From: Escherichia coli
GTDB taxonomy: Bacteria > Pseudomonadota > Gammaproteobacteria > Enterobacterales > Enterobacteriaceae
Reading direction: 5' to 3' (one strand)
Assembly (NCBI RefSeq): GCF_003334385.1
Contig: NZ_QOWN01000210.1
Length of the DNA stretch: 303 bases
The translations under genes and the position numbers were made by a program. Below the pieces are notes generated by a model. The model searched no databases and was not told the origin of the DNA. It saw nothing but the letters and a program-made list of their open reading frames with translations. Positions 122 to 182 of the stretch are shown one piece after another. Position 1 is the stretch's first letter, and each line of letters begins with the position of its first letter.

Positions 122-160
122 TTCTGGGTCTGTCGTCTCCCCGTTTTTCACTTACAGATG

Positions 161-182
161 CCGGGCAACATTCAGTTGCCGG
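161..182 (+). other. Imperfect inverted repeat / stem-loop CCGGGCAAC-ATTCA-GTTGCCGG (8-bp stem, one bulged G, 5-nt loop)
   Basis: Pairs 161-182, 162-181, 163-180, 164-179, (G165 bulged), 166-178, 167-177, 168-176, 169-175; loop 170-174. It is GC-rich relative to its surroundings. No U-tract follows on either strand, so it is not a canonical intrinsic terminator. It lies immediately after the ATG at 158-160. Confidence 0.3.

Follow-up and report, generated by a model that had tools for sequence, protein, structure and literature searches.

A GC-rich hairpin beside an ATG in the tail-to-eib spacer of Escherichia coli prophages is probably an incidental, allele-specific stem-loop

The orf-191A/eibA intergenic region of P-EibA, a prophage of Escherichia coli ECOR-9 whose record (AF151091) is said to go back to Sandt and Hill in 2000, is homologous to the DNA analysed here. 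This is a stretch of 303 nucleotides (nt) from E. coli (assembly GCF_003334385.1, contig NZ_QOWN01000210.1), hereafter called the window, in which an ATG at positions 158-160 (ATG158) is directly followed by a GC-rich bulged hairpin at 161-182. The gene families on either side, and their orientation, are the same in both regions. The P-EibA spacer differs in being without window positions 109-221, and hence without the hairpin, ATG158, the relic of a terminator that we call T1 and a 27-nt palindrome; the single spacer stem_loop annotated in its record lies nearer eibA, outside the window. Another described system is formed by the Rho-independent terminators at module and moron boundaries of lambdoid phages. 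T1 (in other alleles) and two further terminators of our spacer, T2 and T3, are like these in their GC-rich stems of 6-7 base pairs (bp), loops of 6-8 nt and runs of 6-7 T, and in standing where the tail module meets the eib moron, but differ from the usual ones in pointing against the flanking genes. The hairpin at 161-182 is unlike all of them: on neither strand does a U-tract follow it, and it is no terminator. With start-codon-proximal mRNA hairpins that limit initiation it shares a stable stem right after an AUG without a Shine-Dalgarno sequence; here, in contrast, there is no conserved open reading frame (ORF) or start, and the opposite strand carries the neighbouring genes. The prophage small RNAs (sRNAs) of pathogenic E. 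coli, among which AgvB and AsxR were reportedly described by Tree et al. in 2014, are found in a similar setting, intergenic and prophage-borne, with stem-loops and a downstream plus-strand terminator. Our locus differs from them in that Rfam gives no match, no promoter is supported and the stem is not conserved.

Our analysis indicates that the hairpin is probably an incidental, allele-specific stem-loop without a function of its own and, as judged from the sequence and its variants, that ATG158 is not a start codon. The elements in question are these:

158-160, plus strand: ATG without a Shine-Dalgarno sequence; allele types A and B have ATG here, type C has TTT and type D lacks the position.
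161-182, foldable on both strands: bulged 8-bp GC-rich hairpin, intact only in allele type A, with no U-tract 3' of it on either strand.
150-164 (ACTTACAGATGCCGG) and 168-182 (ACATTCAGTTGCCGG), both strands: imperfect direct repeat with 18-nt spacing and CCGG in both copies.

A sequence-only reading of this stretch had described an ATG at 158-160 with a GC-rich bulged hairpin at 161-182, and direct reading of the letters confirmed it. The stem is made of the pairs C161-G182, C162-G181, G163-C180, G164-C179, C166-G178, A167-T177, A168-T176 and C169-G175; G165 is bulged, the 5-nt loop ATTCA occupies 170-174, and the arms are CCGGGCAAC and GTTGCCGG. The description of the upstream DNA as pyrimidine-rich and free of a GGAG-like site was equally accurate, with 22 pyrimidines among the 29 positions directly 5' of the ATG (76% of 129-157) and no GGAG, GAGG or AGGA in that interval. 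No Shine-Dalgarno sequence was found 5-13 nt 5' of ATG158, where 139-155 reads CCCCGTTTTTCACTTAC. Nor is there a Rho-independent terminator at 161-182: the 3' flank reads AATCAGCAG on the plus strand and CATCTGTAAG on the minus strand, and the terminator scan made no call there. Regarding its stability, the 28-nt stretch holding the hairpin folds with -10.9 kcal/mol (z -2.39), a value equalled by 3 of 200 shuffles. When scanning of the whole window is allowed for, the hairpin by itself is only marginally above chance, because 16.5% of the dinucleotide shuffles of the 303-nt window match its stability with a 30-nt hairpin of -10.9 kcal/mol or lower (5% reach -13 or lower).

The alignment of homologous DNA combined 22 copies from genomes, phages and viral contigs with 30 from an anchored metagenome scan. 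Alleles were counted over the 50 loci that carry the segment, whose five sequence variants at 158-182 were grouped into three allele types; type D stands for deletion of the segment:

158-182, type A (14 loci): stem intact, in one of them (L020) with a C169U wobble in the closing pair; -13.4 kcal/mol on the plus strand and -16.1 on the minus strand.
158-182, type B (4 loci): GTTGCCGG changed to GTTTCAGG, which puts two uncompensated changes in the 3' arm; -6.1 kcal/mol (plus) and -6.3 (minus).
158-182, type C (32 loci): TTTCATGACGACTTTCAGTTTCAGG, with both arms altered and the ATG changed to TTT; -6.4 kcal/mol (plus) and -3.7 (minus).
109-221, both strands, type D: deletion of about 113 nt in P-EibA (AF151091, locus L003) and in one chromosome (L010), with an ATC microhomology at the junction.

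Of the 50 segment-bearing loci, 36 no longer have the stem, and what remains in types B and C is as stable as shuffled sequence (z -1.05 to +0.09). At 158-160, 18 of the 50 loci read ATG and 32 read TTT. The frame that opens there meets a stop at 185-187 in L007, L018 and L020 and is deleted in L003 and L010, and no conserved ORF runs through the hairpin on either strand across the alleles. Taken with the missing Shine-Dalgarno sequence and with flanking genes that lie on the opposite strand, these observations uphold the earlier judgement that ATG158 is not an efficient start. The type D deletion takes out a TATAAT hexamer, the T1 relic, the hairpin, ATG158 and the 27-nt palindrome. We interpret the 113-nt indel as a deletion because both units of a tandem duplication, described below, are partly kept in the short allele; a mobile element was considered and rejected, with no terminal inverted repeats and no copies elsewhere.

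The sister alleles have lost the stem, the ATG or the whole segment while the genomic context stayed unchanged. The interval 150-174 is the most variable 25-nt bin of the spacer, with a mean pairwise difference per column of 0.23, versus at most 0.02 in the 300 nt adjoining eib (43 full-length spacers). Across the alleles, one pair of the stem is changed on both sides and two pairs are broken, and a search for compensatory changes found covariation no better than in shuffles (193 of 500 reach the observed score), on only five distinct alleles and hence with limited power. Folding and covariance across homologous loci, proposed earlier as a check on a structured RNA, thus spoke against it, with types B and C at the level of shuffles and the covariation within theirs. 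Given that sister alleles do without the stem, the ATG or the entire segment in unchanged context, the hairpin would not be under selection and, if the region is transcribed, it would be a passive passenger in that RNA.

The same holds for known RNA families. Rfam returned nothing relevant for the window and the whole spacer at a permissive E-value, and nothing but ssrA elsewhere at the gathering threshold over five loci; a tRNA/tmRNA scan found none. The suggestion of a structured leader or small RNA, for which an Rfam search had been recommended, found no support as far as a conserved RNA built on this hairpin is concerned: the stem is gone from most loci, Rfam gives no match in window or spacer, and the hairpin sits in the most variable part of the spacer. 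In the permissive search, weak matches to eukaryotic C/D-box snoRNA models appeared at 39-115 and 23-63, with 20.1 and 15.8 bits versus a gathering score of 50; they are chance matches in AT-rich sequence. Regarding proteins, the annotation of phage PhiR12_1 (L004) places hypothetical proteins of 41 and 55 amino acids (aa) on the minus strand inside the spacer (2800-2925 and 3056-3223). Both are likely over-annotations. The 41-aa ORF was taken up as a candidate and rejected, its GTG start being lost and its frame shifted in the B and C alleles.

The sequence-only reading had also stated that there is no terminator inside the window. This needs correction, as the window end at 303 cuts through a plus-strand terminator whose first position is 292. 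It belongs to a set of repeated elements around the hairpin:

125-148, plus strand: T1 relic, with a decayed 5' arm and the CTCCCCG and T-run kept; -2.7 kcal/mol in the window allele.
292-317, plus strand: T2 intrinsic terminator (GGGGAGCACGCACTCCCC then AGTTTTTT), -11.6 kcal/mol; the window ends at 303.
421-445, outside the window, plus strand: T3 terminator, from the terminator scan.
10-157, plus strand: unit 1 of a tandem duplication of about 176 nt, from its alignment to unit 2.
186-303 and on to about 329, past the window end, plus strand: unit 2 of the duplication, from its alignment to unit 1.
27-43, both strands: copy 1 of the 17-mer TACGAAAATTCTGTATT, identical to copy 2.
203-219, both strands: copy 2 of the 17-mer, identical to copy 1.
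197-223, both strands: palindrome ATGCAATAC-N9-GTATTGCAT, with perfect 9-bp arms round 17-mer copy 2; -10.2 kcal/mol.
116-121, plus strand: TATAAT hexamer without a usable -35; TATGAC in the B and C alleles, TATCAT as its counterpart in unit 2.

Alignment of the two units demonstrates that the spacer contains an old tandem duplication of about 176 nt, because positions about 10-157 and about 186-329 (L001 8010-8329 for the units together) score z 8.6-13 against shuffles, and still 3.5-7.3 without the 17-mer. Both units close with a plus-strand intrinsic terminator, behind which stands CTTxACAG. Of the decayed T1, the 3' arm and T-run survive as the pyrimidine tract at 137-148 (CTCCCCGTTTTT). 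In the B and C alleles T1 is intact: 122-148 reads GGGGAGCGTGCCGTCTCCCCGTTTTTT, a canonical plus-strand terminator of -12.5 kcal/mol and a paralogue of T2. T2 itself was found in every one of the 49 loci with enough flank, nine of which have a mismatch in its stem. Up to three plus-strand terminators stand in series (window 292-317; L001 8421-8445; L008 2972-2999) and none is found on the minus strand; the terminator calls number 5 in the C-type spacer versus 0.7 +/- 0.7 expected, and 3 in the A-type versus 0.7 +/- 0.8. In this spacer family they are oriented against both flanking genes, whereas in eibG-type loci the terminator adjoining the tail is bidirectional or on the minus strand. T1 and T2 are not independent evidence, because they are paralogues. 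The 17-mer has no third copy in 16 kilobases (kb), with 0.02 expected by chance, and the units have otherwise diverged; it could be a binding site or a product of gene conversion. The palindrome round its second copy carries uncompensated changes in 6 of the 50 loci. About 20 nt before window position 1, L005 and L009 show a further tandem duplication of 11 nt (ATGACCATTGA), which is another sign of slippage-prone, unconstrained sequence.

Plus-strand terminators exist, though no promoter above chance that would delimit a transcript of the region's own was found in the scans. The sigma-70 scan made no call in the window, and its hits in the spacer are at chance level (2 found versus 3.3 expected). 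The TATAAT at 116-121 is probably fortuitous, and its counterpart TATCAT directly precedes the T2 stem.

These relations suggest how the hairpin may have come about. It lies at the junction after unit 1, just past the decayed T1, and the self-complementary CCGG of the two direct-repeat copies makes up half of its stem: since CCGG is its own reverse complement, its direct repetition yields four of the eight pairs. The hairpin would have arisen from this short imperfect repeat, with CCGG in both copies and GCAAC/GTTGC completing the stem. In the window allele the first terminator has decayed and left the pyrimidine tract behind, with the hairpin just after it at the unit junction.

Four observations weigh against an incidental origin. 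The type A hairpin clearly surpasses local shuffles in stability: its 42-nt stretch folds with -13.4 kcal/mol on the plus strand (z -3.3) and -16.1 on the minus strand (z -3.5). The pair G163-C180 becomes U-A in type C, and two changes are compatible with wobble pairing. The intact hairpin occurs together with a decayed T1 in 14 of 14 cases, a pattern that might point to compensation but that linkage in a single haplotype block explains equally well. Lastly, z is -4.18 for the fold of the 199 nt at 122-320 on the plus strand; a possible pairing of the T1 relic with the T2 5' arm explains much of this low energy.

The genomic setting bears on both strands of this question. The window is E. coli lambdoid-prophage DNA inside a non-coding spacer of 795 nt (in the source allele). 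It is 100% identical to E. coli chromosomes and occurs in 27 of 5426 complete genomes, at a median of three places per genome, and is never annotated. The spacer is flanked by a DUF4376 gene, a homologue of orf-191A that resembles tail-fibre assembly genes and is the last tail gene, and by an eib-family adhesin gene; in every copy examined, the two genes run on the minus strand, opposite to ATG158. The DUF4376 gene is 76% identical to orf-191A of P-EibA. The adhesin, with a YadA C-terminal domain (trimeric autotransporter, immunoglobulin-binding family), is a relative of EibA (55% identity over 263 aa, E 2e-87). Among the 50 segment-bearing loci the tail gene has its 3' end consistently at +299 (48 of 48), and 35 of the 39 with enough flank give an Eib match. 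Read along the minus strand, the hairpin follows the stop codon of the tail gene by about 265 nt and precedes the eib ATG by about 510 nt. AF151091 covers 86% of the spacer at about 97% identity and this homology, together with the orf-191A-like and eib flanks, places the DNA in the tail-to-eib spacer of Eib prophages of the P-EibA family. Segment 100-225 was found at 52 places in 25 of the 5426 E. coli genomes, and every copy whose neighbours were examined lies in an eib spacer. A dispersed repeat of the REP/BIME or MITE kind was rejected, the segment being confined to eib spacers. The hairpin flank had no matches in one genome per species, and a literature search with the exact sequences gave none. 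Some of these prophages have a toxin gene of the Hok/Gef family between J and the tail-fibre gene (L009 5610-5750, L012 5946-6086).

Only about 170 nt adjoining eib are common to eibG-type loci. An eibG deletion has been complemented by the gene with 168 bp of upstream sequence (bioRxiv 10.64898/2025.12.25.695649). Because these 168 bp suffice, the distal spacer, window included, is unneeded for eibG expression in that setting. A long palindrome (GGAAATTCCGAAAAAC...AAAATTCGGAATTTC) at L001 7750-7790 (window about -250 to -210) lies roughly 100-140 nt upstream of the eib ATG, is the stem_loop annotated in AF151091, and falls inside the approximately 170 nt that are conserved at about 70% in eibG-type loci. 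It is a candidate regulatory site of eib.

Given the plus-strand terminators, a plus-strand transcript may cross the region; the hairpin as a selected part of it is unsupported. One could argue that the hairpin serves as a stem in the structure of a small or antisense plus-strand RNA that starts upstream of or inside the window, reads through the decayed T1 and ends at T2. We regard this as unlikely. Such an RNA would fit the three serial plus-strand terminators and zero minus-strand ones of the C-type spacer, the excess of calls in both spacer types, the constancy of T2, the fold of 122-320, a residual type C stem that is better on the plus than on the minus strand (-6.4 versus -3.7 kcal/mol) and a 17-mer identical in two otherwise diverged units. 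However, T1 and T2 are paralogues, and in alleles with an intact T1 the RNA would stop there, which leaves the hairpin position outside it. The stem is not conserved and has no Rfam match, and no promoter is convincing: the TATAAT lacks a -35 and reads TATGAC in most alleles, and the sole spacer promoter-scan match (TAGTCA-17-AATAAT, window -85 to -57) is at chance level. Pairing of such an sRNA with the eib leader, computed by RNAduplex on long sequences, was discarded as uninformative, with unrealistic full-length duplexes; in this output, which we do not trust, two of three candidates fell within the shuffles and unit 1 lay about 2.8 standard deviations below the shuffle mean. Slightly less probable still is a role on the minus strand, in read-through RNA of the late tail operon or in a long 5' leader of eib, where the hairpin might stabilise the RNA, serve in its processing or act as a barrier to Rho. 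That strand carries both neighbouring genes, and the type A stem is at its strongest there. Moreover, late transcripts probably enter the spacer, because the hairpin that follows the tail gene stop has no U-tract on the minus strand. Yet the stem is gone on this strand in types B and C (-6.3 and -3.7 kcal/mol; z -0.4 and +0.09) and deleted in P-EibA; other eib loci share no more than the roughly 170 nt adjoining eib, and 168 bp of upstream sequence are enough for eibG complementation.

Two more readings appear much less credible. In one, the inverted repeat would be a DNA-level site for a regulator of eib, such as the activator IbrAB or a nucleoid protein, an idea that we consider very improbable. 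The spacer is AT-rich with several palindromes, among them 197-223 and the AF151091 stem_loop upstream of eibA, and eib expression is said to need IbrAB, reportedly a result of Sandt et al. from 2002, a work cited in PMC7649339. The repeat is, however, bulged, asymmetric and unconserved, has no other copy in the 16-kb locus or outside eib spacers, and is missing from P-EibA, whose eibA reportedly belongs to the IbrAB-activated genes. The other, which we hold for the least plausible of all, has ATG158 starting a small protein of 33 aa (MPGNIQLPESAVTMQYENSVLHPRPHLNIFVAG) translated without a Shine-Dalgarno sequence. Its frame, 158-259, is indeed open in A, B and C alleles without C186A. Still, a stable stem follows the putative start directly, most loci have TTT in its place, the stop at 185-187 or the deletion removes the frame in the five loci named above, and upstream indels shift the longer ORF.

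An incidental stem-loop thus remains our preferred explanation, and the outcome is a negative one of small discovery value: a striking hairpin beside an ATG is probably an allele-specific by-product of repeat history. It lies in a fast-recombining prophage spacer and is neither a gene start nor a conserved RNA. Of modest interest for the regulation or insulation of eib are the duplicated, terminator-ended units with their identical 17-mer, directed against the flanking genes. That the two units of about 176 nt are tandem plus-strand small-RNA genes or regulator-bound insulator modules is a speculative idea to which we give little credence. If it were true, a role in controlling eib expression or in protecting the tail operon against antisense transcription would be conceivable, and with T1 lost in the window allele the first RNA would run on through the hairpin as far as T2.
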